A DNA stretch of 64,000 nucleotides from Halorutilales archaeon Cl-col2-1 (GCA_041891055.1 CP169074.1:1280001-1344000); one strand, 5' to 3'; positions 22,931 through 46,757 are shown, counted from the stretch's first letter. Translations and numbers: made by a program. The notes: a model not told the origin generated them from the sequence alone.

Positions 22931-22988
22931 CACTCCAAAGCGGGTGTGGTGGTGTCGGTGTTAAGCTGGGTCAGGTGACTCAGGTTAA
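22931..22988 (+). other. dif-like recombination site A with outer accessory box
   Basis: CACTCCAAAGCGGG (22931-22944), 16 bp, then TTAAGCTGGGT-CAGGTG-ACTCAGGTTAA (22961-22988), an 11-6-11 imperfect palindrome. Confidence 0.7.
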
Positions 22989-23069
22989 CAGTGATTGATT
23001 TACAATCCAAGCTAAAACTCAAATAGACAGCTTAGAGAAATATGTATACATTCTCATTACATTAGATTA

Positions 23070-23262: not shown

Positions 23263-23949
23263 CTAAGATAGCGATAATTCTACGTGTTCCTCAAGTTCGG
23301 ACTCACGTAGATGTTCTAATTGATCATCAGAAAGATTATTCAGCGCAAAGCGTTCTTCATTTAGAAGTCCTTTTACAATCTCTTCAAGCTCTGTACCCTC
23401 GTACGGGCCGAAGAGCTTTTCCTTTGCTTGATCATATGATTGGCGTACATCTGAGCCGTATTCTTGTGTATATGATCCCAGTTCTCGTATATTTTCTTCT
23501 TTATTATTATATATATCTTCTTTCCAATCCCAATTATTAAATAGGTCAGCAAGATCATCGAGTATCTCTTCGTCAACCTGTTCGAGTCTTTGATTGAGCT
23601 TTTTCATGCCAGATACTTGATCTGCCATATCTGATCGGATGTCCTGAATCTTAACATTAATTCTGTGACGCTCTTTTTCAATTTCCGTTTCAAGTTCATC
23701 TATTTCCTCCTCCATCTTCTCGAAATTATTTCTCTCTATATGCTTATTCATTTCCTGAACAGCCTGTTTTTTATCTTCATCTATTTCTATTTCAATTTCA
23801 AATATAGTTGAAGCAAGAACTCCCTGTAGTATAGTTTCCTCCATTATATTTGCTACTTCATTCAAACGGTCATTTAGTTCACTATGTCTATACTGTTTAT
23901 ATACTTGGTCAAGTTCTTCCTCAAACCCTTCATTTGACATAGTATTCAC
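23263..23949 (-). CDS. Coiled-coil protein, DpdI-like by position
   Basis: Helical heptad-rich 228 aa overlapping the end of the upstream ATPase gene, as dpdI follows dpdH. Confidence 0.6.
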   Translation of the reverse strand: MNTMSNEGFEEELDQVYKQYRHSELNDRLNEVANIMEETILQGVLASTIFEIEIEIDEDKKQAVQEMNKHIERNNFEKMEEEIDELETEIEKERHRINVKIQDIRSDMADQVSGMKKLNQRLEQVDEEILDDLADLFNNWDWKEDIYNNKEENIRELGSYTQEYGSDVRQSYDQAKEKLFGPYEGTELEEIVKGLLNEERFALNNLSDDQLEHLRESELEEHVELSLS

Positions 23950-26866
23950 TCACCTCCTTGAAATTCTCCCCTATTTTACTATCCTGACTACTACCTACCA
24001 AAGGAACTGAACGGAATTGATGTACTATACTCATATTATCTAATTTGAGGCTTATGAGAGCCGCGGCAATACTCTGGAATTCATCTTCTTTCCAGAGTTC
24101 GTTTGCTATTTCGGCTGCTTCCTCTACTTCCCTTACATCTTCGTTAGTGTATTCGCATAGCTTACCTAACTCTTCGAGGAAGTCAGTGTTCACGCTATCA
24201 TAGACTTTCAGATTTTCGTATTTGGAACCTACTTCATTCATGTCTGTACCAGCAATCACGTCATTTACGTAGCTAATAACATCGTAATTGAATCCATGAT
24301 CAACCACATCGTCTAATGTTTGCCGAACATCATACATATTGTCAGCAAAGTCTTTCACATTGTGTCCTTTATCGAACCGAAGCCGGGAATCGATATTTTG
24401 TATCTGACCTCTGCCTAACTTGTCTAGAACTTCATAAGGCGGATTAGCTTGTAGACGGCGTCGTACGGCTGGTACGTCAAGTGAGCTCGCAGACACACCA
24501 AACATCTCTCTAACAAGTGACTCGACGTATTCTGCGTCCTGCATAAGCGTCTCAAATACCGAGTAACTACCTATATCAAGAACGTCTTTGAGTGGAGACG
24601 TGAGTCGGCGATCAACTGAGAAGCTTTTGTCATCCCGGAAACGTTCGTTCAGGTCTTCCGCAGAGAGAGGTCTGACAGGGTCATCAAGAAGACAAAGCGT
24701 AGCATAGGACGCTAACAGTAGGTCTGAGAATTCGTACCTAGCATCCCGCTTGTATATCCGATCATCTTTCTCAAGCTGTGTTTCAAAAATACGTCGACGC
24801 CACCCCTTAGAGTATCCAGCTAACTGAACACCTATTCTCTTGTACTGACTCTCGTAATCAGCACTCCGCGGCTCCTCATGGCGTCGAACCCCGAACTCAG
24901 CCAGCTGGCGTAGGTCAGATCTCCGAAAGTCCTTTCTACTAATTACGATCTGATCCTCTTCCGGAGCCTCATTCGAGTCCGAATACACGAAGGGATCCTT
25001 CTGACTGCTAAGCTTATAAAGCAGGTCACCACCTTCGTAGAGCTTGAATCCATCCGTTAGTTCTTTTATAAGATCCCTGAGACCTCTCCGAATGTACATA
25101 TTTGTATCCGGATATTTATCGGGATTCTCTATCCAAGAGTCGACTTCGTCTTTTGCCGTTCGTATCTTTTTCTGTAGGGGATCTGTACCGACAATTATCT
25201 CCCCGCAGTCACCACAAACAACGTTACCGTTACTCTTCGTTTGTATGTTCGAGGAACCGCAAGCAGGGCAGGTGTCTCCATTTCCTCCTCCACCGTTATC
25301 AACCTCTTCTTTATCAATTAGCACGTAATCGTCATCAAACGTAATTTCCTCCGGTAGATCTTCCGTTTCAAACCCAAATGCTTCGACGAACTTTCTATTG
25401 ATCGCCACTTGGCTTCCCCGTTCCTCTCCGTACCACTTCGCCAAATCAGCATACTCTTCCGCTTCGTCGTATACGATATCGGCTACGGATACCGTGTTCC
25501 GTATCCTTTCCCTGAGTACTCCGGCACTTGACGGTGCCTGTGCACTCCCGTAGTGGAACTCATCGAGTATGTCAAATACAGCAATCACGTACTCTCTGGG
25601 TGACTTTTGATCTTCTTCAAGACCAGAGTAGACTCGTCTCAGGAACTGCTCGTTGAACGGATATAGATCACGAAAATCGTCGTCACAGAAACCGCACTTC
25701 GCACAGATTGAGTCCGAAGGGGCATCCTTCAGATTGTAATCCCAACCTTCACGATCATACTGCACACTTCCATCATGTGATTTTATATAGCCAAGGTAGG
25801 GTCGGATAAAGTCAACCGAGGTTTCCTCGTCGAGAAAAAGCACACTGTTGGAATCCTTCTTGTTAGTCTGAAAGAACATAAACCGATCCTCTGAAGTCTG
25901 AGTATGTAATACCTTCGTGGAATCACGTGTACCTGCAACGATGAAATCCCAGTTATCAGACTCCTTGTCACGCTCCATGTAATTGGAGAGTCTTTTTGCT
26001 TCAACAGCAGCTATAGAGAAATCCTCAAATACTATCACAGGACGGGTGTCTTTGAATCTATTTCCCACTTTCTCAAGAATACTATCAAGTGAGGCTGTTT
26101 CGTAACGATCGCGTATTTCCCTCCAGAGCTCGTTGTTGAACTCCTGCGTGGCTTCTTCAATATCTACTGAACCGGCGAAAATCTGGAGAAAGTCCTCCTG
26201 TTCCATCTCCTCTTCTCTGATAAACCTAACCTTCTTGTCATACTCACCGCGTTCCATGAACTGATTGACTAACTTTTCCGCAACAAGATTGCTTATCTTG
26301 TTTCTTTGCTCCGAAGACTCCTCAACATTATATCCCCGCCTACGTAAATTAAGAATCGCACCTGACGTGGCGTTGGTGGCTACAGTCTCCGGATTTTTCT
26401 CAATGTCCTCACGAAGATTCTTGAACTTTTGTGCCCCAGGAAGTTCCTCTCCGAAATGCTCTTCGTAGAACTCCGGTATGCGTTCAGAGAGTATAGTCAT
26501 CAAGTCATCGTTCTTATCAATATGAAGTATGGGGCGATCATCACGGCGTAGACGATGAGTAAGATATGCACACAGTTCGGATTTCCCGGTTCCTACTTCT
26601 CCCTCAATTACAACAACGAAGTTTCCTTCTACCCTGTCCTCAGAAAACTGACGGTAGATACGATCCTCATCCCAGACTGGCAAGCCTTCCGAAGCTGTCC
26701 CACGGAAGACTTCCATAGGACGGTGGGTGAAGGAAAACAGGTCGTACTCTTCGGATCTAACGGCTGCTACTTTACTAAAGAGGCGTTCCAGAGTCTTGTC
26801 GTCAATCTCTTCAAAGTGAGGGCATTCCCCTAACTCATTCTCTGCCGGGTTCTTGTACATACTCAT
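23930..26866 (-). CDS. Large P-loop ATPase, DpdH-like, with internal Zn ribbons
   Basis: Walker A GEVGTGKS, Walker B VIVFED, CAKC and CPAC..CGDC; 978 aa. Confidence 0.75.
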   Translation of the reverse strand: MSMYKNPAENELGECPHFEEIDDKTLERLFSKVAAVRSEEYDLFSFTHRPMEVFRGTASEGLPVWDEDRIYRQFSEDRVEGNFVVVIEGEVGTGKSELCAYLTHRLRRDDRPILHIDKNDDLMTILSERIPEFYEEHFGEELPGAQKFKNLREDIEKNPETVATNATSGAILNLRRRGYNVEESSEQRNKISNLVAEKLVNQFMERGEYDKKVRFIREEEMEQEDFLQIFAGSVDIEEATQEFNNELWREIRDRYETASLDSILEKVGNRFKDTRPVIVFEDFSIAAVEAKRLSNYMERDKESDNWDFIVAGTRDSTKVLHTQTSEDRFMFFQTNKKDSNSVLFLDEETSVDFIRPYLGYIKSHDGSVQYDREGWDYNLKDAPSDSICAKCGFCDDDFRDLYPFNEQFLRRVYSGLEEDQKSPREYVIAVFDILDEFHYGSAQAPSSAGVLRERIRNTVSVADIVYDEAEEYADLAKWYGEERGSQVAINRKFVEAFGFETEDLPEEITFDDDYVLIDKEEVDNGGGGNGDTCPACGSSNIQTKSNGNVVCGDCGEIIVGTDPLQKKIRTAKDEVDSWIENPDKYPDTNMYIRRGLRDLIKELTDGFKLYEGGDLLYKLSSQKDPFVYSDSNEAPEEDQIVISRKDFRRSDLRQLAEFGVRRHEEPRSADYESQYKRIGVQLAGYSKGWRRRIFETQLEKDDRIYKRDARYEFSDLLLASYATLCLLDDPVRPLSAEDLNERFRDDKSFSVDRRLTSPLKDVLDIGSYSVFETLMQDAEYVESLVREMFGVSASSLDVPAVRRRLQANPPYEVLDKLGRGQIQNIDSRLRFDKGHNVKDFADNMYDVRQTLDDVVDHGFNYDVISYVNDVIAGTDMNEVGSKYENLKVYDSVNTDFLEELGKLCEYTNEDVREVEEAAEIANELWKEDEFQSIAAALISLKLDNMSIVHQFRSVPLVGSSQDSKIGENFKEVSEYYVK

Positions 26867-27687
26867 GAAATCACCTCTATTGAGTTAGCTTCAGTATCAA
26901 TCCCAGGTTGAGATGGGACACCTTGGAGACCAACCGCCGCGGCATCACCCACCTCAACTATCCTGATACGTTCATCTGCCACGAGATTGAAAAGCACCCG
27001 TGAGAGTGGTTCCGGGATCTCACCGTCGTCCGTCATCTCAACAAGTAGAAGGTTCTGGTTAAGCCACCTGATGTAGTCGCGTATTTCCATCGGAGAGGTG
27101 TTAGTGTTCCTTGAGGCGAGAATTATGGATTGGTATATCATCTCTTCATCAGGATACACGATATGCCTCTTCCCTTGAGCCTTATAAACCAACCCCAGGA
27201 AATCAGCTATCCGCGTCCAGTTGACCAGCTTCGGCTGATTCATATCTATGACACCTTGCTGTGATCTAGGTTCGTATCCCTTGTCTCTCGCAAAACTATT
27301 CATCTCTCTGTAGATACGCTCACTATCGGACTCAAATGTCTGTACATTTTTCTGGAGGAGATACTGGTAGTTGAGAAGAACCACCGACTGCTTACCCCAA
27401 TTACCACGATCAGCGTCATTTGCGAGCTCATGTAGAACCGCCATACGGAAATTGAGATCGTCATTACCTGTATCCCATGGGTAATTTACTGTATAGTAGT
27501 CTGGTTCTTCTCTTCCAATTAGACCGATTTCCTGAAGACCAGAAATTCCTTGCTTGAGAAGGCTTTCCGATAGGTCAGTATCATCAAGTATCTTTTCTTT
27601 AGTAGTATTCCCTCTCCGAATGGATTTGTATACTACACGTAATGGTCCCGGTGTCTGTACCGTATTGAGTATGTATCCTTCACTCAT
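26863..27687 (-). CDS. Winged-helix-type protein, DpdG-like by size and position
   Basis: N-terminal wHTH-like segment (GLQEIGLI), KLVNWTRIADFLGL; coupled to the ATPase gene. Confidence 0.55.
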   Translation of the reverse strand: MSEGYILNTVQTPGPLRVVYKSIRRGNTTKEKILDDTDLSESLLKQGISGLQEIGLIGREEPDYYTVNYPWDTGNDDLNFRMAVLHELANDADRGNWGKQSVVLLNYQYLLQKNVQTFESDSERIYREMNSFARDKGYEPRSQQGVIDMNQPKLVNWTRIADFLGLVYKAQGKRHIVYPDEEMIYQSIILASRNTNTSPMEIRDYIRWLNQNLLLVEMTDDGEIPEPLSRVLFNLVADERIRIVEVGDAAAVGLQGVPSQPGIDTEANSIEVIS

Positions 27688-28618
27688 AGTCGTAATTTAA
27701 CCATTTGTAGTATTTCGCATCTATCTTGCTCCTTTCAGGGTTTAAGTCTTCTGCGGCTTCTCTCGCGTCTATCTTTGAGGAGTCGTTTACTGCATAGGCA
27801 TAGTCGAAAGTTGGGACATCTTTTAAAGCAGCTCTGTTCAGCTTGCGTGCCATACTGACACTCTCCTTCCTGTCCCATTCAATCCTTCTTCTTAGCCATC
27901 CACCCAAAGCTTCTACCTTCTCATCGGTTTCCAGAGGACCGCTACCTTGGGATTTAGGATTGTCGAATATGTCACAAAATACGTGATATAGAGGGAGATA
28001 TGGGTTATCCGGGAGAATTTCAAACAGATCTCGTGTCTCCTCAACTCTCTTTCCTTCTACAAGTTTATAGAGATTCGCGTTATCCTGTAAGAACAGATTC
28101 TTGGTGTCTTGAAGAAGAAGCTGCCAACCCTTCTGCCTGTAGTCTTCTTCAATACTCTTGTATACTCTTTCGTATGCACCGATTGAGTTCACGAACTGTT
28201 CATGACGGAGAGGACGATGGCCCTCGGTTGGCTCAAACATACGGTGATCCGAGACTACCACGAGCGTCCCGTTACTTGCTGTGTATCTATCTATTAGTCT
28301 TGTAATTGAGTACTTCGTCTGGTGTTCGTAATAACTCGTTGTTACGACACCGAGATCCTCTTCAGAGGGGTGTTTGAAGTTTTCGTCCCCGATAACGTGG
28401 TAGCCAACATCAGGGAACTCGTACTGCCTCCCTCCTTTGTCGTACTCTGAACTCTTTTTCAACTGTCTCCAAGAAGTTGGATACGTAAAGTCAGACAGTC
28501 CGATATACTGGAGAGCGGGTACCGACCTTAGCTTCCAGAAGTGAACGTTGCCCACAGGGTCATGAATAAACGCTACGTCCTTCGAATGAAGACGACGTTT
28601 GATATCTTCAAGAGTCAT
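27680..28618 (-). CDS. Hypothetical protein in the defence operon
   Basis: 312-aa ORF tightly coupled between the helicase and the DpdG-like gene. Confidence 0.75.
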   Translation of the reverse strand: MTLEDIKRRLHSKDVAFIHDPVGNVHFWKLRSVPALQYIGLSDFTYPTSWRQLKKSSEYDKGGRQYEFPDVGYHVIGDENFKHPSEEDLGVVTTSYYEHQTKYSITRLIDRYTASNGTLVVVSDHRMFEPTEGHRPLRHEQFVNSIGAYERVYKSIEEDYRQKGWQLLLQDTKNLFLQDNANLYKLVEGKRVEETRDLFEILPDNPYLPLYHVFCDIFDNPKSQGSGPLETDEKVEALGGWLRRRIEWDRKESVSMARKLNRAALKDVPTFDYAYAVNDSSKIDAREAAEDLNPERSKIDAKYYKWLNYDYE

Positions 28619-28622
28619 TAGG

Positions 28623-31600
28623 TTACTCCTCTATACCTGTTATTGCCGCGAGAGTGCGGTGATCTAGTAGATCATTTTCAAGGTAATGTGCAGGAGTACG
28701 TGAGATGAGAAGGCACTCATCACAGTAATCAACGCATCTTTCACAGTCGGCTATTTCTCGAACCTTTTCCTCTATATCTTCGAGGCTCTCGCGTACCTGC
28801 CAAGCTATTCCATTTCCTCCTTGGCGACTATCTACCAAGAACACCTTGACGGTATCTTCCGTAGTTTTTGTTTTAACACGGAAGTCCGACCTGTCGCACT
28901 CTGCAACAACGGCTACCGCCCTCTTCATAGCCTGCTCAATACTCGTCAACGCCTGTGACCACGACTTTGGTTCATGATCGGCTCTGTCGTACCTCTCTTC
29001 TACCTGTTCCTTGTCGAATGATATTATAGTTCCTTGAGTATGGTACTGCTGACCAACCGGACGGTACCGTTCTTTTTCAGTTTCCTCCAACTTGTCACGC
29101 CAAGACATATCTGTTTCAGAAGTACTCGATTCTTCGTCTTCTTCTATTAGGGCTTCGGAACGGTAGAGATCCATATCCGGGCTACTGGAATGGCCTCTTT
29201 CAAAAGCATAGACAAAATCAGTGAGTTCGTGCTGTCCGTACCCCACTTGGCAGTCGAGATCGAACAGCGTTGTCTCTTCAGTGGTACCCCCTTCGTTCTC
29301 AGCAATATATGTGGACATCTCGGCGTGAGTTCTCCACTCTGCTCGTCCTCCGCGTGCTTCCTTGCATTCGACGTTTGCGACTCCGTGGACATCTGTGGAC
29401 TCAAGCTCGGATCCGCAGTGGGGACAGATATCTTCGTCCGTATGGTAGGTTTGGAACCGACGATCGCATTCTTCGTTGTCGCATACCGCTACGCTCGTTA
29501 TCGGCTCAGGTGTGCCACGAACATCGTTAACGACGTAGTCGGTACCGTGGAGCTTAAGAACCGCTCCAAACTCGTTCTCCTGTCCTGGATACATATCGTA
29601 GAGACGCCCCCCTCTTTCGAAGGATATCTCATCATCCCTTCCGCTGAACTTTACAGGGAATGTCTGTCCGAAGTTACGGTAGTTTGCGAGGTATCCCAGC
29701 TTGCTCAGCCACTGATCAAGCCGGCTTGTGTTCTTCGTCAGCTCTCTGTTTGCCGTAGCGGAACTTGACATCGTGGATAGACTTCCGAATGTCTGATCAG
29801 TCCGCGTCGATAGAGACAGGTTTTCATCTTCAAAGAATATCTGTTCGAATACTTCGACCCCCCGTTCTCCGAATACGTCCTGTATGTGTTCGCGTAGAAC
29901 GCCTTCCATCTCATCGCGTATGAATCCGTTCAGGATACTAATGTGCTCCTGTACCGCGGAAACGAACTTAGCGAGGTTCTCCCTCTCTGGTTCAGGTATA
30001 GTATACATCCTCTGGAAGACATCTTCAGGGTGAGGGTTGCGAGCGAGATACGCAAATACTTCTGTGGTCACATGACCCGCCAGAAGCTCGTCGAAGTCAT
30101 ACGGATCAGGTATACGAACGGGTTCAAAGCTTCCGAGGTAGCTATCCAGATTTGCGTAATAATGTCCGTCCACAGGATGTTGTCCTCGGATAACTGTCAT
30201 GACCAATGACGAACTCCCGCGGGTTCTTCCTGTCCGACCGGAGCGTTGAACATAGTTGGTCAACGTCGGGGGTATTCCCACCTGTGCAACAGTATCTAGA
30301 GACCCTATGTCCACACCAAGCTCCATTGTTGGGGTGGAACTTACTATGTTAACATCCGGGTCCTCCTTCTTGAAGCCCTCCTCGATAGCTCCCCTCACCG
30401 TGTGCGGTATATTGCCTTTATGAATACCTACTGAGATAAACTCGGGAGAGCCACCACCTTGTATAGGCTGAGTTACGTCATGAGCCCAGTGATCGACCGC
30501 ATAGTCCCATCCGGATTCGACTTCGGCGTATCCTGGATCCGCTTGAAGGTTTCCGTTCTCGTCGCGTGTGAACCTTCTGTACGTTTTAAGCGGGGAACCG
30601 CATTCCTGACACTCGTTAATGCACCCGCCGGACGAAGTAGCCGGGTATGAGGAATAACACTCTTTACAAAATCCCACGTCAGGTAGGAGAACCAAATCCG
30701 AATCATCATTACGGATGTCACGTGTGAATATCCCGCTATCAGCTGGCTCATCAAGTATTCCCATCGACTCAACTGTTTCGCGGGCTGACTCAAGATAATC
30801 TCTCAGACTCTCACGCTTGACTTCATCGAGGTTCTGCGAAGATACCCTTTGTTTTACGTCGTCAAAGGGCATGATAGAAACGATACCAACCTCATGTAGA
30901 TCAGATATTACGTCGTCTATAACCCTCTCTACCATCTCCTCTGATACGTTAACCCTCTTGTCTATACGGTCAACCAGCTTCGACCTCGTCAAACCGTTGA
31001 ACCCAACTCCTTCTTTTGTAAACGAGGCTTTCTGAAGCGCGAAGAGCTTGTACACCTCATGTGCCACAACAAGCTCAAGCGGATCGGAACGTTCTGCAAC
31101 TACGTTAGCTGTGACTAACGCACTGTCGAGTAGGTTCTCACAGTTCGATAGACCTGCGTGTCCCCTGACAGTTTCCAACATCGGTCGGAGGAAGTTATAC
31201 GCCTCAGACTCCTCGTCTATCTCGTTCTGTACGAGTGGATCCCAGTACTCCTCTTGGAGTTTAGTGGCGACATTAGTATACACCTCATAGTTTTCCGCTT
31301 GACCTCCGTTTTCGATTATCTCCTGCAGGTACAGGGTCTGAGCCATCAGGCTGTACTCAGTATCTATTATTTTGTCCCCGACGCTTTCTGCGGCGCTATG
31401 TGAGTCGGAGAAGACAAGCGTCTTTTTCGAAGGAGTTTCCCTGCAGACCTCCGTTAGCATATACGACAACAGAGAGGATGTCGGAACACCAACATCGGAT
31501 AGACGAGGAGAGTTGCTACAGCCGGGGCAGTCGCTCTCCGATCCGTGTCTGTTCGACCGTGCAGGAGTAAACTGAGACCCATCGTTGTCCTCGGTTTTTA

Positions 31601-33374: not shown

Positions 33375-33454
33375 CTTGTCAGTACCCAAACAAAACAGGA
33401 TGCTTAGTTATTAAATTGAGGGTCGTTCATTCAATAGTTCTTTATTTGATCCAA

Positions 33455-34114
33455 TTATGTATGGACTTCATCAGGAGGAATTATATTTAGGTGATGTTCT
33501 GAAGAGTAATGTTTTTCGATAGCGTCGTTAATATCTGATTCTCTATCTATCATATCACGGTAATCAAGAGTGACAACCATATTTCCCCCACAGTGATCGC
33601 ACCAAACTGCTCCTTGTGCCAAGACGATGCTATCTTGATAATTATCGATCCGTGAATCTATATCCTCCGCTAATTCGTCCTTATGATCACCCGTATATAT
33701 TTTCGTTCTTTTCTTTACTGTTCGCTTCCTTGACCTGACTGAGCGGATGAATTTACGTAGCTCGTAAAATTTATTTTCATCATCAATCGATGCGAATTCC
33801 ATCTGCAGGTCTCGAAGGTGGTCTCGGTCATTATCCGTTACTTTTACAGATGGATTTCTGCTTTCGAAATCTATTACTTCGTACCTGAATATTGGATGGG
33901 TTTCTGAGTCACTCTCCTGTTCAACGAACTTCCGAAGATCAATATAGATTTGTCCCCTTGTAGAACATCTCATTTCAAATTCATCCTCAACTTCTGTGGA
34001 GATGAATTTGTCATCTCTTCCCTCAATAACGGAGATGCTACCTTCATCTCCTTCAAGCCAGACTTGTACGTAATTCAAAAGGACACTTGTATCGAGGAAC
34101 AGTTGTGAAGGCAC
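33455..34114 (-). CDS. PIN-domain protein (putative toxin/RNase)
   Basis: LFLDTSVLLN, ISTEVEDE, QDSIVLA and VTLD acidic motifs. Confidence 0.7.
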   Translation of the reverse strand: MPSQLFLDTSVLLNYVQVWLEGDEGSISVIEGRDDKFISTEVEDEFEMRCSTRGQIYIDLRKFVEQESDSETHPIFRYEVIDFESRNPSVKVTDNDRDHLRDLQMEFASIDDENKFYELRKFIRSVRSRKRTVKKRTKIYTGDHKDELAEDIDSRIDNYQDSIVLAQGAVWCDHCGGNMVVTLDYRDMIDRESDINDAIEKHYSSEHHLNIIPPDEVHT

Positions 34115-34119
34115 TTATG

Positions 34120-35148: not shown

Positions 35149-35318
35149 ACGGCTATTAGATATCCAACCACATAATATTCATGGATGGATGACGGTAATC
35201 TCTCTGATGGTGATAGTAGTGATACTGACGGCACAAATACTGCATGAATGACCCGTAATCAGATGGAAATACCACCAAAGGATTGAAGCCCCAGTCAATT
35301 GAATAACATCTTATTCCA

Positions 35319-39356: not shown

Positions 39357-39774
39357 CGGATTACGTTACTTGCTCGGTTACTCATTAGCACAAAAGGATC
39401 ATGTTGCTATATGCACGCCGTGGCTGAGCGACGTAGAGCTACGGCTACCGCTAAGTCCCGAAGTAGAAGATCGTCGTATTTCGCTGTCTGCTGCTCTCGA
39501 AAAGTTTGACACAAGAGTGGATGTGTATATCAGAGAAGGTCAGTCACACAATGAGTATATTCTTTCAAAAATAGGAGAGAATGCTAATATAACTAAAGAT
39601 GAGAATCTACACGCCAAGGCTATCGTAACCAACGAGTACGTGTATCTCGGCTCCGCAAATATAACAAGAGGTGGATTGTTGACGAATCTCGAGCTGTGTC
39701 AGGTGATAGAAAACGAGTATGAGAGCGTAGAGAAGTACCTGGAGGCTGAGTTAGAACTCTCAGTTTCTCCATAA
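39328..39774 (+). CDS. Single-domain phospholipase D-family nuclease (DpdK/DrmC-like)
   Basis: TPWLSD and HAK..GSANIT motifs; GGAGGTGA ribosome-binding site precedes the ATG at 39328. Confidence 0.85.
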   Translation: MVQTFSLPSSGLRYLLGYSLAQKDHVAICTPWLSDVELRLPLSPEVEDRRISLSAALEKFDTRVDVYIREGQSHNEYILSKIGENANITKDENLHAKAIVTNEYVYLGSANITRGGLLTNLELCQVIENEYESVEKYLEAELELSVSP

Positions 39775-39783
39775 TCAGGACTA

Positions 39784-40338
39784 TCAGTTGGATTCCTGAT
39801 TTAATCTCGGGTTGTCAACTTCAAGAAAGTCCGAAAGATTCTCCAGCAGAATTTCTTGGTGTTCGTAGACAGTCTTTCGCGTTTTCTTACTGTGACCAGA
39901 CAGTTTGACCTTGTCCACCATTCTTATCAGATGTTCCAGCTTCTGCTTCGATCTGTTGTACGGCTCAGATCGGAACTCAAGCTCTTCTTCGGTAATTAAC
40001 TCGACGACACCATCCGGCTCGTTTAGATTGATGCTCGTTGACGGAAGAGATGAGGACTGCCCCTCTTCGAAGTTCAGGTATGGTTCGTACTCAGTGAGTA
40101 GTAGCTGCTCTGCCTTATCAGTGCCATCAGTTTCCCACCATTCGACTCTATGAATATCCCATATATCCAACCTACCATAGCTAACTACACTTGAGTCTTG
40201 ACGAATAAAATGCTCTCTCAGACGCCTTCTTAGGCTACTATCTGTCTTACCTGCATATGCCGGCTCATCGTCTAAGTCATACATGCAGTACACTCCACAT
40301 TCACCCCTTGGAACGGTCTTAAGCTCCTCGGAAATCAT
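39784..40338 (-). CDS. GIY-YIG nuclease
   Basis: GVYCMY..AYAGKT..LRRRLREH..E motif. Confidence 0.85.
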   Translation of the reverse strand: MISEELKTVPRGECGVYCMYDLDDEPAYAGKTDSSLRRRLREHFIRQDSSVVSYGRLDIWDIHRVEWWETDGTDKAEQLLLTEYEPYLNFEEGQSSSLPSTSINLNEPDGVVELITEEELEFRSEPYNRSKQKLEHLIRMVDKVKLSGHSKKTRKTVYEHQEILLENLSDFLEVDNPRLNQESN

Positions 40339-41900
40339 CGCAACTCCTCTACTATGATAGCGTTCACTAACTCAGAAGCACCGTCGTACGAGTATGTTAT
40401 CTGCTTGTTTTCGAAGTCAATAGAGACATTACCCTGTAAGTATCCTTTGCGTTCTTGTTCCCGGAGATAGTCCAAGTCACCCCACTCCCAAGCTACGATA
40501 GCGTCAATAACTTCCAGATTCCTTTCCTTCTCGAAGTGATCTTGAACAGACATCTCTACTGAGGTAGCCTCAAGCCCCTGCCCATTGCGTATGAAGGCAG
40601 TTACATCGTGATCAGGTCGGTAGTCCTCAAGCTCCACTATAGGCTCTTCTTTATCACGATTGACTCTCTCAAGCGCGACGAGGAGTTCTGCTGTGTTTTC
40701 AGGCACAAATTCTGAATCCTGCCTCTTAATTAGTTTCTCACGTCTCTGCTCGACGGACTTCGACTGAGACTCAGATCTACGTTGCGCTTCTCCTCTTCGT
40801 AGCGTATCTTGGTACTTCGAGAACCACGGATCGCTACATACTTTGGAGATGTAGTGCCTGACCTCTTCCAAAAGACGGTCGTATAAATCACTACTCTTGT
40901 TGCGGATCTTACCCCTGTTGGCTGAGAGTTCAAGATCCTGACAGTTAGCCACAAAGAAGAGATGTGTGTGTTCTACGTTGTCCGGAACAACCTCATTAGC
41001 TTGTTCGACCTTGATATGATCCTTTGCTAACCAGACTCCGAACTGTGCAGAATGTTTCCCGTACGTGGCAAGTTTGTTACGTGCTCTTTTACCTCCTACC
41101 ATGCCGACAATCTCCACCTCAGAAGTACCACCATCATGCTCTACCTGCAAAGTCTTTGCAGGATAGTGCTTGCACATCCATTCTCCAGGGAACCTCCCCC
41201 CCGCAGGCTCTATCTGCTCTTCGGGAAACTCAAAGTGGTTGTTGATTCTCAGATCTTTCTGAGTATCGTCGATGTAGGCATCCAGATCAACAATTACCTC
41301 CATCTCACGGGAATCGTCTTCGAAGAAGTGAGCAGTAGATCCTGCAACTGTCTTCCACTTCAGATAGTGTTCTATCTTATTGTAGGTTAACGAACCTTCA
41401 CTAAGTCCTTTACCCGACCTGAAGCCGATAATCTCAATCTTCGTACCTTCCCGATTATCCCTCTGCTGCTCTGTGACCTCATACTCCGGTAATTCTCTCT
41501 CATTTAGCTTTTCCCAAGGTCGATTCATCTTCGCCGACAGATGTTTATCGTTCTTTGAGGTCTCAACTCGTATCTGATCACTCTTGTAGAAAATCTTAGT
41601 ACCATGTCCCTTGTACCCGATACCATCTTCTTTGTTGGAGTTTCCTAAATCAAAGAAAGACTCTAAATCGTCTTTATCCATCCCATTTCCGTCATCCTCT
41701 AAGACAATGTCCGCTCCTTCATCACGGGTACGTATTGTTATCTCGAAACGACCGGCGTCCGCATCGTATGCGTTAGATAAGGATTCTCGTATTACCTCGA
41801 GAGGATCCTCAAAATCACTAGCAATTTCCAGGAACTCGTTAACTTCGTTTACTTTCGGTGTTTTCCTCGTTTCTCCTTCCGTTTTTGTTTCTGTTTTCAT
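40335..41900 (-). CDS. GHKL (MORC-like) ATPase
   Basis: RESLSNAYDA, DDGNGM, GYKGHGTK and GTKI motifs followed by an S5-like region. Confidence 0.88.
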   Translation of the reverse strand: MKTETKTEGETRKTPKVNEVNEFLEIASDFEDPLEVIRESLSNAYDADAGRFEITIRTRDEGADIVLEDDGNGMDKDDLESFFDLGNSNKEDGIGYKGHGTKIFYKSDQIRVETSKNDKHLSAKMNRPWEKLNERELPEYEVTEQQRDNREGTKIEIIGFRSGKGLSEGSLTYNKIEHYLKWKTVAGSTAHFFEDDSREMEVIVDLDAYIDDTQKDLRINNHFEFPEEQIEPAGGRFPGEWMCKHYPAKTLQVEHDGGTSEVEIVGMVGGKRARNKLATYGKHSAQFGVWLAKDHIKVEQANEVVPDNVEHTHLFFVANCQDLELSANRGKIRNKSSDLYDRLLEEVRHYISKVCSDPWFSKYQDTLRRGEAQRRSESQSKSVEQRREKLIKRQDSEFVPENTAELLVALERVNRDKEEPIVELEDYRPDHDVTAFIRNGQGLEATSVEMSVQDHFEKERNLEVIDAIVAWEWGDLDYLREQERKGYLQGNVSIDFENKQITYSYDGASELVNAIIVEELR

Positions 41901-41901
41901 C

Positions 41902-43143
41902 TTAGAAGTAACCTCCTAATGATTCATTTACGACTCTGTGAGCGTGTTTACGTGTCGACTCCTCACGTGCAATATTATTGTCTATATAATTCCTAAGTGC
42001 ATCCTGTCCCTCCTCAATCTTGTTCCGTATCCTTTCTAATTCTCGTTTCTGAACTATTAGGTTATGCACAGCTATTGGACCGGCTATATCCTTTTCGTAC
42101 TTCGTATTTCCTTTCATACGACTCACAAGCTCATCAGAGCTGCATACAGGACAGTCGCATTCCTCGTAATTAGCTTCGTCTTTATGTACTGTCTTCGTCA
42201 GGGATGTCGAATACTTTCCATTTATCCCCCCACGCATATACGAAGATGAGTCAAAAGTATCCACACCCAAAGCGGCAAGTAGAGGTATAGCCCCTTTGGA
42301 GATTCCAAAAACGTGTAATGGGAGATCTTCTAATCCTTCTTCTTGCATTACCTCCTTACACCCGATAACTGCCTCGATAAGGGTATCACGGTCATCTTTC
42401 TTTGGAACTAGCCCACCTAGTGCGATACCGTCAAACGAATTATATATTCTCTGTATACCCATCTCGTCTTTAAGATGAGTTAAGAAAGTTTTGATCATCG
42501 AATAGTTATAGCCATGTAATGTGAGATACTTGGCCCCAGCATAGCCTGAGGACAGTTCTGCAAATTGACGAGCGTCTTTACCAGTCTTCCTCGCTTTTCT
42601 TATTCTATCGTCATGGTTATCCTCAGGTGAGATAGGACGATCAAGATTTACGAGAATATCTCCTCCCAACTTTCTCTGCATTTCGTATATCCTCTCCTGA
42701 TTCATCTCTATCTCAAAGTCACTCCCATCAAGCTTCCCTTTCCTTAGTATTTGAAAACCTCCAGAATCAATAAATATCATACCATTAAATCCCTCAAATA
42801 CGTCTCGCGCTTTGATTGGTTCAGAAAGATAGTCTCGGAGATAGTTTCTACTAATTCCATATTGAGTTAGTGATGATATCGACATCATAGCAGTATCAAA
42901 ATATTCACTGCAGTCAACGCTGTCAACCCTATCAGCACCCACCATCAATTCTTTGACTGTCCTGTGAACGCTCCCCCCAAACATACTGGAAGCACGCCCT
43001 CCACCATAGAAATTCACTACAGGAAAAAGATTTGGCGTCTCAATTTCGGCTGTTCCAGCAGACAAAGTTCCTGTCCTAGCATCACCAGTAGTAGAAGATA
43101 CTTCAAATGAGACTTCCTGCGAACCCATACCTATACTACTCAT
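41902..43143 (-). CDS. tRNA-guanine transglycosylase-like protein (DpdA-like), no PUA domain
   Basis: ARTG..ETP, DSGGFQ, D..VNLD, LHG, GGLVP, HVFG, DTFDSS, CDCPVC..HN (Zn site). Confidence 0.9.
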   Translation of the reverse strand: MSSIGMGSQEVSFEVSSTTGDARTGTLSAGTAEIETPNLFPVVNFYGGGRASSMFGGSVHRTVKELMVGADRVDSVDCSEYFDTAMMSISSLTQYGISRNYLRDYLSEPIKARDVFEGFNGMIFIDSGGFQILRKGKLDGSDFEIEMNQERIYEMQRKLGGDILVNLDRPISPEDNHDDRIRKARKTGKDARQFAELSSGYAGAKYLTLHGYNYSMIKTFLTHLKDEMGIQRIYNSFDGIALGGLVPKKDDRDTLIEAVIGCKEVMQEEGLEDLPLHVFGISKGAIPLLAALGVDTFDSSSYMRGGINGKYSTSLTKTVHKDEANYEECDCPVCSSDELVSRMKGNTKYEKDIAGPIAVHNLIVQKRELERIRNKIEEGQDALRNYIDNNIAREESTRKHAHRVVNESLGGYF

Positions 43144-43589
43144 GCTTTAATCACTCTCTTATCTCGAACGAATTTTTTTAATACATGCCCACGTTCACCG
43201 AGACCTCCCTCTAGCATTATCACTTCAGCATCTGTCTTGGATTCTATTCCATCTATTGCTCTACGGTATAGCTCCCCCATATTAATGACAACTTTACTGT
43301 AGTCGTTCTTCTCAATTGTCCTAGATAATTCGTGCACAACGTCGGTATTAAGCTCGTCGGCACGTGAGGCAGTCATCTTTTTATCATACGTTACTATTTT
43401 CTCCTCTGGATCCAGCAATCCATATTCCGCAGAAAGTATACATATATCAATATCATCGTCGTATTCCCCCTCCCGTCTTGCTTTTTTAATTATCTTGTAA
43501 TAGTATCCAGAATATAGATCAAAGGCAGGAACCGGTTCAGAAACTGACTTCTTCGAGCTAGAGCAACTTTGAACGAGTAGTGTCGACAT
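43140..43589 (-). CDS. DUF6884 / YaaA-like protein (possible DpdC counterpart)
   Basis: LLVQSCSSSK..A.DLYSG..ILSAEYGL..YD..M motif, sandwiched between the two TGT genes. Confidence 0.7.
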   Translation of the reverse strand: MSTLLVQSCSSSKKSVSEPVPAFDLYSGYYYKIIKKARREGEYDDDIDICILSAEYGLLDPEEKIVTYDKKMTASRADELNTDVVHELSRTIEKNDYSKVVINMGELYRRAIDGIESKTDAEVIMLEGGLGERGHVLKKFVRDKRVIKA

Positions 43590-43626
43590 CTGTAGAATAC
43601 GTTTTAATCACCGAGACCTATATAAC

Positions 43627-45624
43627 TTACTCAACTGACGGACTGATTCCCCTCAAGTGACTGACTAACTCCTCTATATTGGACTTTCGAAAATGTTCTC
43701 TAAGTTTCAGGATGTTCGGATCATCTGGCAACACAGTTCCATCACCATATCTAGAAAAGGCTTCATCTACTGCTTCTCTGTAGTTTTTACTAACCACATA
43801 TCCTAAGATTTCATCGTATTCATCTCCATACTGCTCAAGATACTCAGTTAATCTCTTCGTGATCAAATCCTTCTGACCTTCATCCTCAGAAGTTAATACA
43901 TATTCGTACTCTAAAACCGCCTGTTCTTCTTCGTATTCTTCAGGAACTGGCCCAAACATACCCGAAAGGGTTACTTTATGTATATCATTACGCATAGAGG
44001 AAACTTCATCAAGCACTGCTCTCTGTGTACGTGATGACCCATAGGGCTTCTCTTTACTGCACGGTAAGATCAATAAGATAGGTTTGTCTGGTGGGGAGTA
44101 ATTTCTCTGTAATATATTGAAACTATTCGCTCCATGCTCAAGAGATATTGTTCGATTAGTTGTGCCCCCCTTCACTCCGGCATCAAATCTATCTAATTTA
44201 GACTGGTGTTTCGTCATCTTAGACCCAGGCAAAAGATCATAATCACCTCTGTCCTCAATATCTTTCCTTAGCTTTTCATCCCTGACTTGCGCTTGTTTTA
44301 GTCCTTTTTGGATCCCATTGTCTTCGCGTGCGAATTCAATAACATAATCAAGAAGATTTCCATTCTTAATAGCCTCTTGAACCCGCCTTACTTCTCTGTT
44401 ATATACCTCGAAGTTATGACGAGCAAGCCATCCGTAGTATTTGCTCTTCGTGAACCCATCAGTTCCATATGTCGGCTCACGTTCTATATACTCATTTAAT
44501 TTTTTAAGAGAGAGTCTATTTCCTTCCTCATCAAGAGCCTCAGATTCCTCACTACATAGTGGACATCCATCTATATTACACGGGAATGTGTCTTTTTCCT
44601 CTGCTAGTTCACTTAATTCTACTCTCTCCCACGTTTCAGGTATAATATACTTCCTGAATTTAGCAGCTTGAACATGGCTTGAGCAATCAAATGAATCAAC
44701 CCCTAGAAGAGAAAGAATACCCGCTTGTTTACCTCCTACTCCAAAAGAATGTAAAGCTATTTTATCCTTCTTTTCCTCTGGAATAGCATCTTTAGCTCCT
44801 TGGATTATATCAACCAGAGTCTTTGTTTTGCTTCGAAGGGGTACTAAAGATCCAATGGCAAATCCATGAAAAGGTTGCTGTACGTTTTCCTCCTCAATAC
44901 GTTCAAGGAAATTCATCACATACCAGTTCATTGTCTCATAGTCATGTCCATGAATAGCAACAAAAACAGCTGGGTCAGCTACTTTCTTCTGCTTCTTTAA
45001 ACGGCGTATACTTTCTTTATCTTGTTCAGAACGTATTTCTATCTTATCAGGGCCCTCAATAAGTTTTAAACAGCGTACAGCACTTTCGATACTTTGATTC
45101 ATTCGGTCAATCTTTTCCCCTTCTTTTAGATTCTGTGGGATTGGATAATCAAGGGTAGCTATAATATCAGCCCCAAAGTCCGTCTGTAATTTCAAAATGC
45201 TGTCAGGATCTGTATATATACCCCATTCATTTTCTTCACCTCCTTCGTCAGGAGCTAGTCCAAATGTCTTAGAATTCATTAATTTAAATCCGCCAGAATC
45301 AATAAAAAGAGGTGCATTCATGTCAACACGACTTTCTAAATGTTCTCGAAGAGTTTTTTTACGCCATTTCTCGTTAAGATTCTTGGGAGAGACCCCATAC
45401 TCAGTAAAGCTCATAGCTTGAAACATAATGCCCTGAAGATCGTCTTCATCAAGTATATTATCCCGGAAGTGCCTCCATATTGATCCAGAGTCTAAAGTAG
45501 TGCCGCCAATTAGATTTATAACAGGGAAAAGAGCAGGTGTATTAACCTCCCCATTACGGACAGAAAGGGTGCCAAGCCTACCATAGCCATCATCACTGAC
45601 TTCATCAATAGAAAACTCCGTCAT
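43627..45624 (-). CDS. TGT-like protein fused to C-terminal ArcS-like (DUF5591) domain
   Basis: DSGGFK, TLDYP, IHG, GSLVP, HSFG, DSFDCS, C..GCPLC..HN; C-terminal LILPCSKEKPYGSS..FGPVPEE. Confidence 0.88.
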   Translation of the reverse strand: MTEFSIDEVSDDGYGRLGTLSVRNGEVNTPALFPVINLIGGTTLDSGSIWRHFRDNILDEDDLQGIMFQAMSFTEYGVSPKNLNEKWRKKTLREHLESRVDMNAPLFIDSGGFKLMNSKTFGLAPDEGGEENEWGIYTDPDSILKLQTDFGADIIATLDYPIPQNLKEGEKIDRMNQSIESAVRCLKLIEGPDKIEIRSEQDKESIRRLKKQKKVADPAVFVAIHGHDYETMNWYVMNFLERIEEENVQQPFHGFAIGSLVPLRSKTKTLVDIIQGAKDAIPEEKKDKIALHSFGVGGKQAGILSLLGVDSFDCSSHVQAAKFRKYIIPETWERVELSELAEEKDTFPCNIDGCPLCSEESEALDEEGNRLSLKKLNEYIEREPTYGTDGFTKSKYYGWLARHNFEVYNREVRRVQEAIKNGNLLDYVIEFAREDNGIQKGLKQAQVRDEKLRKDIEDRGDYDLLPGSKMTKHQSKLDRFDAGVKGGTTNRTISLEHGANSFNILQRNYSPPDKPILLILPCSKEKPYGSSRTQRAVLDEVSSMRNDIHKVTLSGMFGPVPEEYEEEQAVLEYEYVLTSEDEGQKDLITKRLTEYLEQYGDEYDEILGYVVSKNYREAVDEAFSRYGDGTVLPDDPNILKLREHFRKSNIEELVSHLRGISPSVE

Positions 45625-45733
45625 ATCTATACAGTAGATACTAAGAGAATTAGAGCTTTCGGAAAGGTGTATCCGAAACTTCAGGTATATTGGGAGACTT
45701 GAAAAGTATAGGAGTAGTTCAATAAGCTACGCC

Positions 45734-46411
45734 ATGACAGAAAATAACCAAGCTATAGCGATACCTCAAATATCACTAATTGCTCTGTTTGTCACTGCGT
45801 TAATTACTGCTCAAGTAACTGCCTCGAAGGTTATAGAGATCGGACTACCATTCGGATTACCAGTAACGGGGGAGTCAATAATAGTCCCAGCAGCAGTTTT
45901 TGCATACGCTCTTACTTTCTTCTCCTCTGACTGCTATGCTGAACTCTACGGTAAGCAAGCAGCACAAGCTCTTGTTAACGTCGCATTCATCATGAATTTC
46001 GTTCTATTAGCTCTAGTTTGGCTCGCTATATACGCACCTATCTTTCCAGATTCTCCTGTCGGACAAAATGAATTTGTCCAGACTCTTGGTGCTAGTACTG
46101 GAATAGTCATGGGGAGTTTATTAGCGTATATCGTAAGTCAAAACTGGGATGTTATAGTGTTCCACCGTCTCAAGAACTTTTCTGACGGAGATGATCTATG
46201 GCTTCGTAACATTATCTCTACTTCCACGAGTCAGCTAATAGATACAGTTATATTCATCTCAATTGCATTTATTGTCTTCCAAGGATTGTCTCTTGAAGCA
46301 GGAATAGCTCTCCTCATCGGACAATATGTATTCAAACTGCTTATAGCAGTACTCGACACACCATTTGTGTACATAGTAGTGGGTATAATAAGATCCAATC
46401 AAGATGGATAG
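45734..46411 (+). CDS. Queuosine-precursor (preQ0/preQ1) transporter, YhhQ/COG1738 family
   Basis: SDCYAELYG, YIVSQNWDV, WLRNIISTSTSQLIDTVIF, DTPF. Confidence 0.9.
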   Translation: MTENNQAIAIPQISLIALFVTALITAQVTASKVIEIGLPFGLPVTGESIIVPAAVFAYALTFFSSDCYAELYGKQAAQALVNVAFIMNFVLLALVWLAIYAPIFPDSPVGQNEFVQTLGASTGIVMGSLLAYIVSQNWDVIVFHRLKNFSDGDDLWLRNIISTSTSQLIDTVIFISIAFIVFQGLSLEAGIALLIGQYVFKLLIAVLDTPFVYIVVGIIRSNQDG

Positions 46412-46590: not shown

Positions 46591-46699
46591 GTGTGGGGTC
46601 AGAGATAGAAAGATAAGTCTGTCTTTGGGTTAGTCAGCTAGCCAACAATTTGTAGTCTGTTGGTTAGATAGAGTAGGTTCATTCTCCAGATCAAAAGTG

Positions 46700-46757
46700 G
46701 TAAGTTGAGTCAGGTGACTCAGCTTAACAGCTTATCTAACTACCCCGCTTTGGAGTG
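46700..46757 (+). other. dif-like recombination site B with outer accessory box
   Basis: GTAAGTTGAGT-CAGGTG-ACTCAGCTTAA (46700-46727), 16 bp, then CCCGCTTTGGAGTG (46744-46757), the reverse complement of the box at site A. Confidence 0.7.

Follow-up and report, generated by a model that had tools for sequence, protein, structure and literature searches.

A probable BRIGADE Type I locus with two additional TGT paralogues in a genomic island of Halorutilales archaeon Cl-col2-1

Gene content of the locus

The stretch of DNA analysed here, which we call the window, comprises 64,000 nucleotides (nt) of Halorutilales archaeon Cl-col2-1 (GCA_041891055.1 CP169074.1:1280001-1344000). Between positions 23263 and 46411 it carries a block of 15 open reading frames (ORFs) that includes two paralogues of the TGT family, two large helicases, two ATPases and putative nucleases. 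An original prediction, made from the sequence, had read this block as a Dpd-like 7-deazaguanine DNA modification and defence system. All 15 ORFs lie where it had placed them, and profile searches with Pfam, PADLOC and NCBIfam agree with its main domain calls. The features are as follows (lengths in amino acids, aa; values without a unit are E-values).

45734-46411 (+): YhhQ/Vut_1 transporter of queuosine precursor (preQ0), transcribed away from the modification operon (Pfam Vut_1 2.7e-47; NCBIfam TIGR00697 142.6 bits, cut-off 50.95)
43627-45624 (-): ArcS-like TGT-DUF5591 fusion, 665 aa (Pfam TGT 1.2e-28 and DUF5591 4.4e-15)
43140-43589 (-): DUF6884 protein, 149 aa, a short DpdC/YaaA-like predicted nitrile-processing enzyme (Pfam DUF6884 1e-15)
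41902-43143 (-): stand-alone TGT, 413 aa, predicted DNA-guanine transglycosylase (Pfam TGT 4.8e-29)
40335-41900 (-): GHKL (MutL/MORC/Hsp90-type) ATPase, 521 aa (Pfam HATPase_c_3 1.4e-14)
39784-40338 (-): GIY-YIG nuclease, 184 aa, an accessory gene (Pfam GIY-YIG 4.4e-5, 24.1 bits, cut-off 22.6)
39256-39774 (+): small PLD-family nuclease, DpdK-like (PADLOC DpdK 5.2e-11; Pfam PLDc_2 5.5e-8)
35319-39356 (+): DpdJ-like YprA-family superfamily 2 helicase (Dpd branch), 1345 aa (PADLOC DpdJ 6.3e-45)
33455-35148 (-): two ORFs of 342 aa and 219 aa without family, between the helicase modules
28623-33389 (-): ARMADA/Druantia-like YprA helicase, 1588 aa (Pfam DEAD, Helicase_C and MZB 1.8e-10; PADLOC DruE3 3.7e-48)
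27680-28618 (-): 312-aa protein without family match, accompanying the 1588-aa helicase in relatives
26863-27687 (-): 274-aa protein with a possible N-terminal winged helix-turn-helix (HTH_45 E=0.024, below cut-off)
23930-26866 (-): 978-aa STAND/AAA ATPase, DpdH/BrxC-like, with a zinc ribbon (nSTAND3 2e-5; Zn_Ribbon_TF 1.7e-4; DpdH 2e-6)
23263-23949 (-): 228-aa acidic helical protein, final gene of the helicase operon (weak helical/coiled-coil-type matches only)
22958-22991 (no strand): left member of a pair of 34-nt imperfect palindromes flanking the block
46697-46730 (no strand): right member of this pair, 88% identical to the left

On the minus strand, the modification operon reads TGT-DUF5591 fusion, DUF6884, 413-aa TGT, GHKL, GIY-YIG, and the helicase operon reads 1588-aa helicase, 312 aa, 274 aa, 978 aa, 228 aa. 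For the latter, the helicase, hypothetical and ATPase labels of the original prediction stand; its winged helix-turn-helix is a weak call, and its coiled-coil protein drew only weak matches to helical proteins.

Two TGT paralogues distinct from the housekeeping enzymes

An alignment with P. horikoshii arcTGT shows that neither island TGT has lost the two catalytic Asp motifs or the LD.P pocket Asp; in both, H-G stands at the position of Q-G in arcTGT. The zinc site is CxCxxC..H in the 413-aa TGT and C-x4-C-x2-C..H in the fusion. Pfam finds no PUA domain in either protein, while it does find one in the genome's own ArcS. The alignment and the Pfam search thus bear out the residue features named in the original prediction (Asp motifs, zinc site, H-G for Q-G, no PUA).

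In the 413-aa TGT, the catalytic Asp, pocket and zinc residues are invariant across 17 homologues. On the curated NCBIfam models it scores 126.8 bits for arcTGT (TIGR00432, cut-off 350) and 28.8 bits for DpdA (NF041059, cut-off 200). Its top match in the PDB is arcTGT (1iq8, 3.2e-25) with bacterial TGT at ~1e-7, and no chain named DpdA is among the 46 matches, which argues for descent from arcTGT. Because the active-site and zinc residues are invariant and RNA-binding domains are absent, this protein is the obvious candidate for a DNA transglycosylase: a predicted functional analogue of DpdA, derived from arcTGT.

The fusion joins a complete TGT barrel (~residues 1-440) to a DUF5591/ArcS C1 core (~505-628). 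It scores 99 bits on the ArcS model NF040592 (cut-off 440) and so is not a housekeeping ArcS. Invariant in 23 orthologues are D109-S-G-G-F, D159, H225-G226, D310, D313, C349, C354 and H403-N404 of the barrel, as is the ArcS active-site motif P521-C-S..K-P-Y..S..T (PCSxxKPYxxSxT); the third zinc cysteine varies. By these alignments, neither the TGT catalytic residues nor the ArcS active-site motif has been lost from the fusion. Since its barrel is complete and both Asp motifs are invariant, it may exchange bases itself or hold a flipped base.

A comparable pathway is that of phage and viral DpdA2 and ArcS2, as far as it is set out in the part of PMC10516641 on which we draw. The fusion shares with it the DUF5591 core, the PC-x3-KPY-x2-S motif, the absence of PUA and the proximity to a DNA transglycosylase. 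Phage ArcS2 is DUF5591-only, whereas the DUF5591 of the window belongs to a cell-encoded protein that also has a complete TGT barrel, apparently active; the phage motif PC-x3-KPY-x2-S-x2-H moreover ends in H and that of the window protein in Q. A collection of 50,697 phage records yielded, as relatives, three weak TGT matches at 24-25% identity, and archaeal viruses contributed none of these.

The genome (2.06 Mb, 4 contigs) holds its own arcTGT (541 bits on TIGR00432, cut-off 350) with an adjoining ArcS (653 bits on NF040592, cut-off 440), at 510.8-514.1 kb of contig 1, ~0.8 Mb away from the window. To place the island proteins relative to these we built a maximum-likelihood tree of TGT domains (quick IQ-TREE, LG+G4, SH-aLRT support). 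Its 119 rows are all blastp matches that reach 250 aa in the 79 loci described below (first 400-470 residues), the two window TGTs, the genome's arcTGT, E. coli Tgt, phage 9g DpdA and five plasmid proteins. One clade (34 rows, support 100) unites the 413-aa TGT with its orthologues and has an Aenigmatarchaeota protein as sister; another (31 rows, support 99), divided into three subclades, contains the TGT domains of the fusions. A 76-row clade (support 95) encloses both, together with other long TGT fusions, the small TGT of a second plasmid type and phage 9g DpdA, and a branch with support 98 divides this group from the genome's own arcTGT. A phylogeny, the check that had been suggested alongside the original prediction, therefore does not group the island TGTs with the genome's arcTGT, and both fall outside the housekeeping arcTGT/ArcS pair. 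The three fusion subclades comprise 14, 11 and 6 rows across the loci; in one subclade, the fusion is always the gene immediately downstream of GHKL.

These comparisons bear on a role in RNA, in which the paralogues would serve an alternative or stress-induced tRNA archaeosine pathway and sit in a defence island by happenstance. The top-scoring curated families are indeed arcTGT and ArcS, the catalytic and preQ0-pocket residues are kept, and the island proteins share with the housekeeping pair the TGT fold, the zinc site and the ArcS C1 motif. Yet they score far under the equivalog cut-offs (127 against 350; 99 against 440), possess neither a PUA nor a C2 domain, substitute H-G for Q-G, and form a separate clade in a genome that already holds a full arcTGT and ArcS. 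They are also strictly linked to the GHKL ATPase and to defence helicases, and have a patchy, island- or plasmid-borne distribution (below). We consider an RNA role very improbable and infer that the substrate is DNA.

A DpdC-like protein and a GHKL ATPase adjoin the 413-aa TGT

Besides DUF6884, the 149-aa protein gives weaker Pfam matches to YaaA and DUF5591. In PADLOC it matches PDC-M57A (1e-11) and DpdC (2.8e-8, covering ~70 residues of the 319-position model), and CxxxK and LSAxxG motifs are visible. The family descriptions that we draw on relate DUF6884 to YaaA/DUF328, the family of DpdC. From these matches the protein is a recognisable, short DpdC-like protein; the original prediction had listed the gene correctly but left its DpdC-type domain unlabelled.

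The GHKL gene begins 1 nt past the stop of the 413-aa TGT. Its product consists of GHKL and transducer domains, a long helix and a small C-terminal α/β domain (AlphaFold2 (AF2) model, pLDDT 76.4). Foldseek matches the model to Hsp90, the MutL N-terminus and MORC2 with DNA (TMq up to 0.41), and at its N-terminus the protein matches the NCBIfam BbrUII/HgiDII restriction enzyme family (6.1e-11, 41.6 bits). It is thus like prokaryotic MORC/MutL-type ATPases and BbrUII/HgiDII GHKL restriction enzymes in its GHKL and transducer fold, but differs from the latter in falling far below the family cut-off of 550 bits and in always being coupled to a TGT.

The C-terminal 124 aa are predicted to fold with pLDDT 93. 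A wide VIA-align search returned mostly PD-(D/E)xK nucleases as neighbours (NucS, LlaBIII, EcoT38I, SfsA, Can2, VRR-NUC, FokI and MspJI), with a best Z of 4.6 that is below significance guidance; Foldseek against the PDB gave nothing at E<=0.001, and the domain has no invariant canonical D...(D/E)xK triad. We take the nuclease-fold reading of this model as a lead only. A predicted complex of the 413-aa TGT with GHKL scored 0.56 against 0.37 for one control, which counts neither for nor against binding.

The GIY-YIG protein displays GVY..YAG..R..E motifs. YhhQ is the sole Vut_1 match in the whole genome, which also encodes QueC and QueD. Rfam applied to the whole window found tRNA only, and no preQ1 riboswitch upstream of YhhQ; a promoter and terminator scan of 45.5-47 kb, using consensus patterns that are bacterial, found nothing.

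Two divergent YprA helicase modules

The 1345-aa helicase scores higher on DpdJ than on DruE (151 against 59 bits in PADLOC) and has a single CxxC. Lacking the 4-Cys DUF1998 cluster, it fits the Dpd branch as described in the main text of the BRIGADE preprint discussed below. Its neighbour, the PLD protein, bears a HAK..GSAN motif, scores 45.3 bits on NCBIfam DpdK (cut-off 100) and probably starts at M25.

The 1588-aa helicase has the opposite preference (PADLOC DruE3 162 bits, DpdJ 89 bits); PADLOC v2 holds no ARMADA model, and its likeness to ARMADA is read from the DruE scores and the architecture. About 650 aa are inserted between motif III (SAT at 329) and the Helicase_C match at 985-1056. 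Nine CxxC motifs lie at 560-624 (four), 908-930 (two), 1322 and 1549-1559 (two, forming a terminal 4-Cys cluster). The long insert, the many CxxC zinc motifs and the terminal 4-Cys DUF1998 fit the ARMADA/BRIGADE lineage as the preprint describes it. The two helicases share 26-29% identity, in the RecA cores only.

Among the proteins that accompany the 1588-aa helicase, the 312-aa one has no family match by profile search and no usable match in the Protein Atlas, where its model is poor (pLDDT 0.30). The nSTAND3 match of the 978-aa ATPase is below cut-off, and Asp and Glu make up 27% of the 228-aa protein. Between the modules, the 342-aa and 219-aa ORFs gave no Pfam, PADLOC or NCBIfam match above noise (a weak PIN match at 0.046), and neither the 32 related loci described below nor the related Haladaptatus plasmid has a homologue of them; they are probably a lineage-specific insertion outside the conserved system.

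Conservation and linkage among haloarchaea

At least 539 homologues of the 413-aa TGT were found at E<=0.001 among 8000 scored candidates, and all eight organism-named rows among those listed are haloarchaeal. A scan with one genome per species gave 79 loci. The 32 with >45% identity all belong to Halobacteria or Nanohaloarchaea, and it is over these that neighbourhoods were counted, up to 10 kb to each side, some loci ending at contig ends. DUF6884, TGT and GHKL occur in this order and on one strand in all 32, so the GHKL gene, which the original prediction had seen as an addition, belongs to an invariant core. The ArcS-like fusion is present in 28, whether upstream, downstream or inverted. 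A DpdJ-like helicase with PLD occurs in 10 of the 32, the PLD gene being adjacent in all 10 that have the helicase; at least one gene of the 1588-aa helicase operon occurs in 11, GIY-YIG in 8 and YhhQ near the core in 4. Recurring as it does in 32 other loci, the arrangement of the block goes beyond chance. Syntenic orthologues of the smaller operon members are 37-55% (312 aa), 37-62% (274 aa), 39-58% (978 aa) and 33-42% (228 aa) identical.

Haladaptatus sp. YSMS36 carries 13 of the 15 genes on plasmid NZ_CP119784.1, at 37-64% identity and in the same operons, together with a second ArcS-like fusion and a 1493-aa AAA protein. The two fusions of this plasmid (28764-33463) are 57% and 41% identical to that of the window and belong to different subclades. 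DNA contigs from salt-lake and hypersaline-lake metagenomes contain the window stretch; no RNA dataset is listed among the matches.

TGT orthologues (E<=1e-60) are found in 40 of 401 sampled Halobacteria-class genomes, spread over 23 of 91 genera and never in more than one copy; the only further genome from the genus of the window has none. Both full-length helicases are encoded in 24 of the 40, only the 1588-aa type in one, only the DpdJ type in one and distant relatives in four. Full-length DpdJ-like orthologues stand beside the TGT in 25. A helicase lies within ~31 kb on the TGT contig in 29 of the 30 helicase-positive genomes, the exception being a fragmented assembly, and one of the 30 has an additional, more distant DpdJ-like match ~56 kb from the TGT on the same contig. 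Conversely, 25 of the 28 genomes with a 1588-aa helicase (E<=1e-100) also carry the TGT. Related genomes are non-independent samples, which overstates these associations to an unquantified degree.

Probable assignment to BRIGADE Type I

BRIGADE was named by Bell et al. (bioRxiv 10.1101/2025.09.15.676423), whose main text describes it, from genomics alone, as exclusive to halophilic archaea; the experiments reported there concern ARMADA, not BRIGADE. As defined in that text, it comprises DpdG, DpdHI/BrxC, a predicted 7-deazaguanine cluster, which the authors treat as biosynthetic, and, as a rule, also a PLD nuclease and a pair of YprA helicases. In Type I, one helicase is ARMADA-like and the other belongs to the Dpd branch; a small PLD accompanies them almost always, and a large DNA2-like protein often. 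In Type II, both helicases are ARMADA-like and nearly identical to each other, and a CasRa-like regulator is present. Beyond the preprint, our literature search met BRIGADE and YprA together only as a single passing mention of the name.

The block has the helicase pair of Type I: an ARMADA-like YprA protein with insert, zinc modules and DUF1998 (1588 aa), and a second, Dpd-branch one (1345 aa) that is no close duplicate of it. Beside the DpdJ-like helicase stands a small PLD nuclease, which has no 4-helix-bundle domain, the 7-deazaguanine genes are the two TGTs, the DpdC-like DUF6884 gene and YhhQ, and the 978-aa ATPase resembles DpdH/BrxC, by a weak and partial match. The range is likewise halophilic-archaeal, with all named close relatives in Halobacteria or Nanohaloarchaea, acidic proteins and matches in salt-lake metagenomes. 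The window differs in having no large DNA2-like helicase/nuclease, frequent in Type I according to the preprint; on the Haladaptatus plasmid the 1493-aa AAA protein fills its place.

Type II could be ruled out: the helicases are not near-identical, and the block is without a Csa3/CasRa-like regulator and without que genes. A separate cluster, on Salinigranum marinum plasmid NZ_CP100464.1, looks like Type II by the preprint's main text. There, queC-folE-queE-queD are accompanied by a TGT fusion of 739 aa, a TGT of 344 aa, a BREX ATP-binding protein, HNH, Csa3 and a large DEAD helicase, and nine plasmids carry a TGT of this type.

With canonical bacterial Dpd (dpdA-K), as described in the sources that we draw on, the locus shares a TGT-family transglycosylase, a DpdJ helicase with a DpdK-type PLD, a restriction-modification logic and, by partial profile matches, a DpdC-like protein and a DpdH-like ATPase; YhhQ, present here, is reported as frequently linked to Dpd. 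In contrast, the island TGT derives from arcTGT and not from bacterial DpdA, the block has no match to DpdB (ParB-like), DpdD or DpdE, and the ArcS-like fusion, GHKL ATPase, GIY-YIG nuclease and second, ARMADA-like YprA helicase are additions. In PADLOC, none of the 15 proteins matches DpdB or DpdE at E<=0.01, and DpdF matches are limited to the helicase C-domain, as the original prediction had it. Lacking a DpdA-family TGT, DpdB and DpdE, the locus is not a canonical Dpd subtype.

Related clusters were seen outside haloarchaea. In a Symbiobacteriaceae metagenome-assembled genome (MAG; DASPIW010000053.1, 9163-21209, locus L034), QueC, a 684-aa TGT-DUF5591 fusion, a 259-aa ORF, DpdH (7e-18), a second fusion of 756 aa and DpdJ (8e-138) are found together; ArcS-like fusions linked to Dpd effectors thus occur there too. 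In a Thermoplasmatales MAG (locus L035), a DpdJ-like helicase and a PLD-like ORF adjoin a 518-aa TGT.

Taken together, we assign a probability of about 75% to the reading that block 23263-46411 is a BRIGADE Type I system, which would act by restriction-modification with a 7-deazaguanine mark, in a low-GC composite island at a tRNA-Glu gene. The Dpd-like archaeal modification and restriction island with two extra TGT paralogues of the original prediction is supported by the domain assignments and by the full-scoring housekeeping pair elsewhere in the genome. The system is not, however, the distinct one that had been proposed, since its gene content fits BRIGADE Type I as the preprint's main text defines it; a match to a previously defined subtype is what the original prediction had itself named as grounds for refutation.

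Several points weigh against this assignment. The match to Type I is judged by the main-text definition and not gene for gene. DpdG, which the preprint lists for BRIGADE on the basis of HHpred and structure, is unmatched by hidden Markov models in the 312-aa, 274-aa and 228-aa proteins, and the DpdH match of the 978-aa ATPase is weak and confined to the N-terminus (residues 42-198). No curated NCBIfam equivalog cut-off is reached for DpdA, DpdK, arcTGT or ArcS. The tree was made by a quick method, only one housekeeping arcTGT in it is haloarchaeal, and several of its branches are long (3.44 for phage DpdA); such joins can be false. Our literature search found no modified-base measurement or defence assay for this locus or for any BRIGADE system. 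Finally, 10 of the 40 TGT-bearing genomes have neither helicase at E<=1e-40, and 3 of the 28 genomes with a 1588-aa helicase have no TGT.

The last two counts mean that the modules can live apart, and invite a reading in which separate systems are merely co-located: a self-contained DUF6884-TGT-GHKL unit, with or without the fusion and GIY-YIG, whose effector is GHKL, next to two independent YprA-helicase systems that do not read the mark. Module order and orientation do differ between loci, two unrelated ORFs split the helicase modules in the window, and kinship among the genomes inflates the TGT-helicase association. The resemblance of GHKL to BbrUII/HgiDII at its N-terminus and to PD-(D/E)xK nucleases in its C-terminal structural neighbours would suit an effector, but the nuclease-fold match is weak and has no invariant canonical triad. 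Against this stand the presence of the TGT in nearly all helicase-bearing genomes and the proximity of the two in 29 of 30, when only about a tenth of the sampled genomes have the TGT at all. We regard separate systems as unlikely; the TGT core and the helicase modules are clearly linked, though separable.

Genomic context

GC content is 0.37-0.50 in the stretch that holds the block against 0.56-0.58 at the right end of the window, and climbs from ~0.40-0.45 to 0.56 past a tRNA-Glu(CTC) gene at 55055-55129 (-). Genes for tyrosine recombinases lie at 53790-54938, 51204-52325 and 49936-51207, and the region looks like a composite integrated island. On the left, an integrase fragment (204 aa, 22294-22908) adjoins the left copy of the 34-nt palindrome, and a second repeat pair lies at 22915-22948 and 48406-48439 (76% identical). 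The bracketing palindromes could be att-like sites or cassette boundaries. Low GC, integrases, repeats, the sole YhhQ lying in the island, plasmid copies and a patchy distribution together point to acquisition by horizontal transfer.

Other features lie to the left of the block. At 5946-10486, in the low-GC island, a 971-aa protein with Tubulin_2 (3.5e-31) is followed by an overlapping 549-aa ORF without family. Two large pentapeptide-repeat proteins are encoded at 10644-12659 and 17201-19249, the second ending in an Ion_trans_2 ion-channel domain. At positions 1-1665, a 105-nt unit occurs at least 14 times in tandem (92-95% identity) in a frame open past the left end of the window, which would encode a protein of 35-residue repeats. 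Direct repeats of ~125 nt at 13814-14064 and 19284-19579 (89-91% identical, 5.5 kb apart) flank a GC-richer stretch (0.53); the right-hand one adjoins a DDE transposase gene at 19567-20214, possibly marking an insert bounded by insertion sequences.

Proposed mechanism and implications

In a BRIGADE Type I system of this composition, preQ0 would come from the host archaeosine pathway or be imported by the island YhhQ, and would replace guanine in chromosomal DNA by the action of the 413-aa TGT. From the inserted nitrile, the DpdC-like DUF6884 protein would make an amide (dADG), and the DUF5591 (ArcS2-type) domain of the fusion would yield 2'-deoxyarchaeosine (dG+) or a related amidine. The GHKL ATPase could drive base insertion in place of the missing ParB-like DpdB or, alternatively, be a MORC/HgiDII-like effector. 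Unmarked DNA would be attacked by two modules, the DpdJ-like helicase with the PLD nuclease and the ARMADA-like helicase with the 312-aa, 274-aa, DpdH/BrxC-like and 228-aa proteins. Such restriction by the helicase modules we infer by analogy with Dpd, DISARM, ARMADA and Druantia. The GIY-YIG nuclease would be an optional extra.

There are precedents for this chemistry. In the account of Cui et al. 2023 (PMC10516641) on which we draw, DpdA2 of phage nt-1 alone gives dPreQ0 in plasmid DNA, and adding the DUF5591-only ArcS2 gives dG+. In the descriptions of bacterial Dpd that we draw on, DpdC hydrolyses dPreQ0 to dADG and DpdB is an ATPase required by DpdA. Given a DpdC-like DUF6884 protein and a fusion whose DUF5591 has the nt-1 precedent, the likeliest marks are dADG, dG+ or both. 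The original prediction had two TGTs serving two strands or motifs; it is at least as likely that processing of inserted preQ0 is the task of the second TGT, through its ArcS2-type DUF5591 domain. Literature searches returned nothing joining dPreQ0 with haloarchaea, no archaea in the DUF6884 literature and nothing on PDC-M57.

The same genes could in principle act on foreign marks in the manner of a modification-dependent (Type IV-like) system, the TGT-fold proteins recognising or excising viral 7-deazaguanines and the GHKL, GIY-YIG and PLD nucleases cutting the damaged DNA. Haloarchaeal viruses with deazaguanine DNA do exist, HVTV-1 being described as carrying dPreQ1, as do bacterial defence glycosylases against such DNA, which have a different fold; three nuclease-type genes also accompany the TGTs. 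A preQ0 importer tied to the core here and in the few loci noted above, and nitrile-processing domains (DUF6884, DUF5591), suit the building of a mark and not its removal. The plasmid cluster of the other type moreover has its queC-folE-queE-queD genes beside the TGTs, and the preprint's main text likewise interprets these genes as biosynthetic (bioRxiv 10.1101/2025.09.15.676423). We give this alternative little chance of being right and retain marking of self DNA by BRIGADE Type I as the preferred reading.

A more speculative combination, possible but on balance doubtful, would have the TGT-DUF5591 fusion be bifunctional, performing both base exchange and nitrile conversion, and DUF6884-TGT-GHKL be a self-sufficient restriction-modification unit, with a MORC/MutL-like GHKL clamp, tailed by a degenerate nuclease fold, in the role of DpdB, of the effector or of both. 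If the fusion is bifunctional, 2'-deoxyarchaeosine, or else an amidine or amino-acid adduct of preQ0 that is new, would be expected in the chromosomes of haloarchaea that carry it. We know of no report so far of such DNA hypermodification in any cellular genome.

The kind of system was already known, named in 2025 from genomics alone in the preprint's main text. Relative to that main text, what is new here is the invariant DUF6884-TGT-GHKL core, the prevalence of the fusion, the linkage counts, the separation of both TGTs from the housekeeping enzymes and a fusion that keeps the residues of two active sites.

The locus is a complete, compact example of BRIGADE, mostly conserved on the Haladaptatus plasmid, in which a GHKL ATPase stands where bacteria have DpdB. 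Its core enzymes, on their predicted activities, suggest chemistry beyond dPreQ0 and dADG. To our knowledge, measurements of 7-deazaguanine in DNA come from bacteria and viruses only, and from no archaeal chromosome; cultured carrier strains exist in which the chemistry of the mark could be measured, among them Halorussus amylolyticus YC93, Halorubrum lipolyticum DSM 21995, Halorubrum coriense DSM 10284 and Halorubrum kocurii JCM 14978. Should it prove to be dG+ or a new adduct, the archaeosine pathway would extend from tRNA to cellular DNA.

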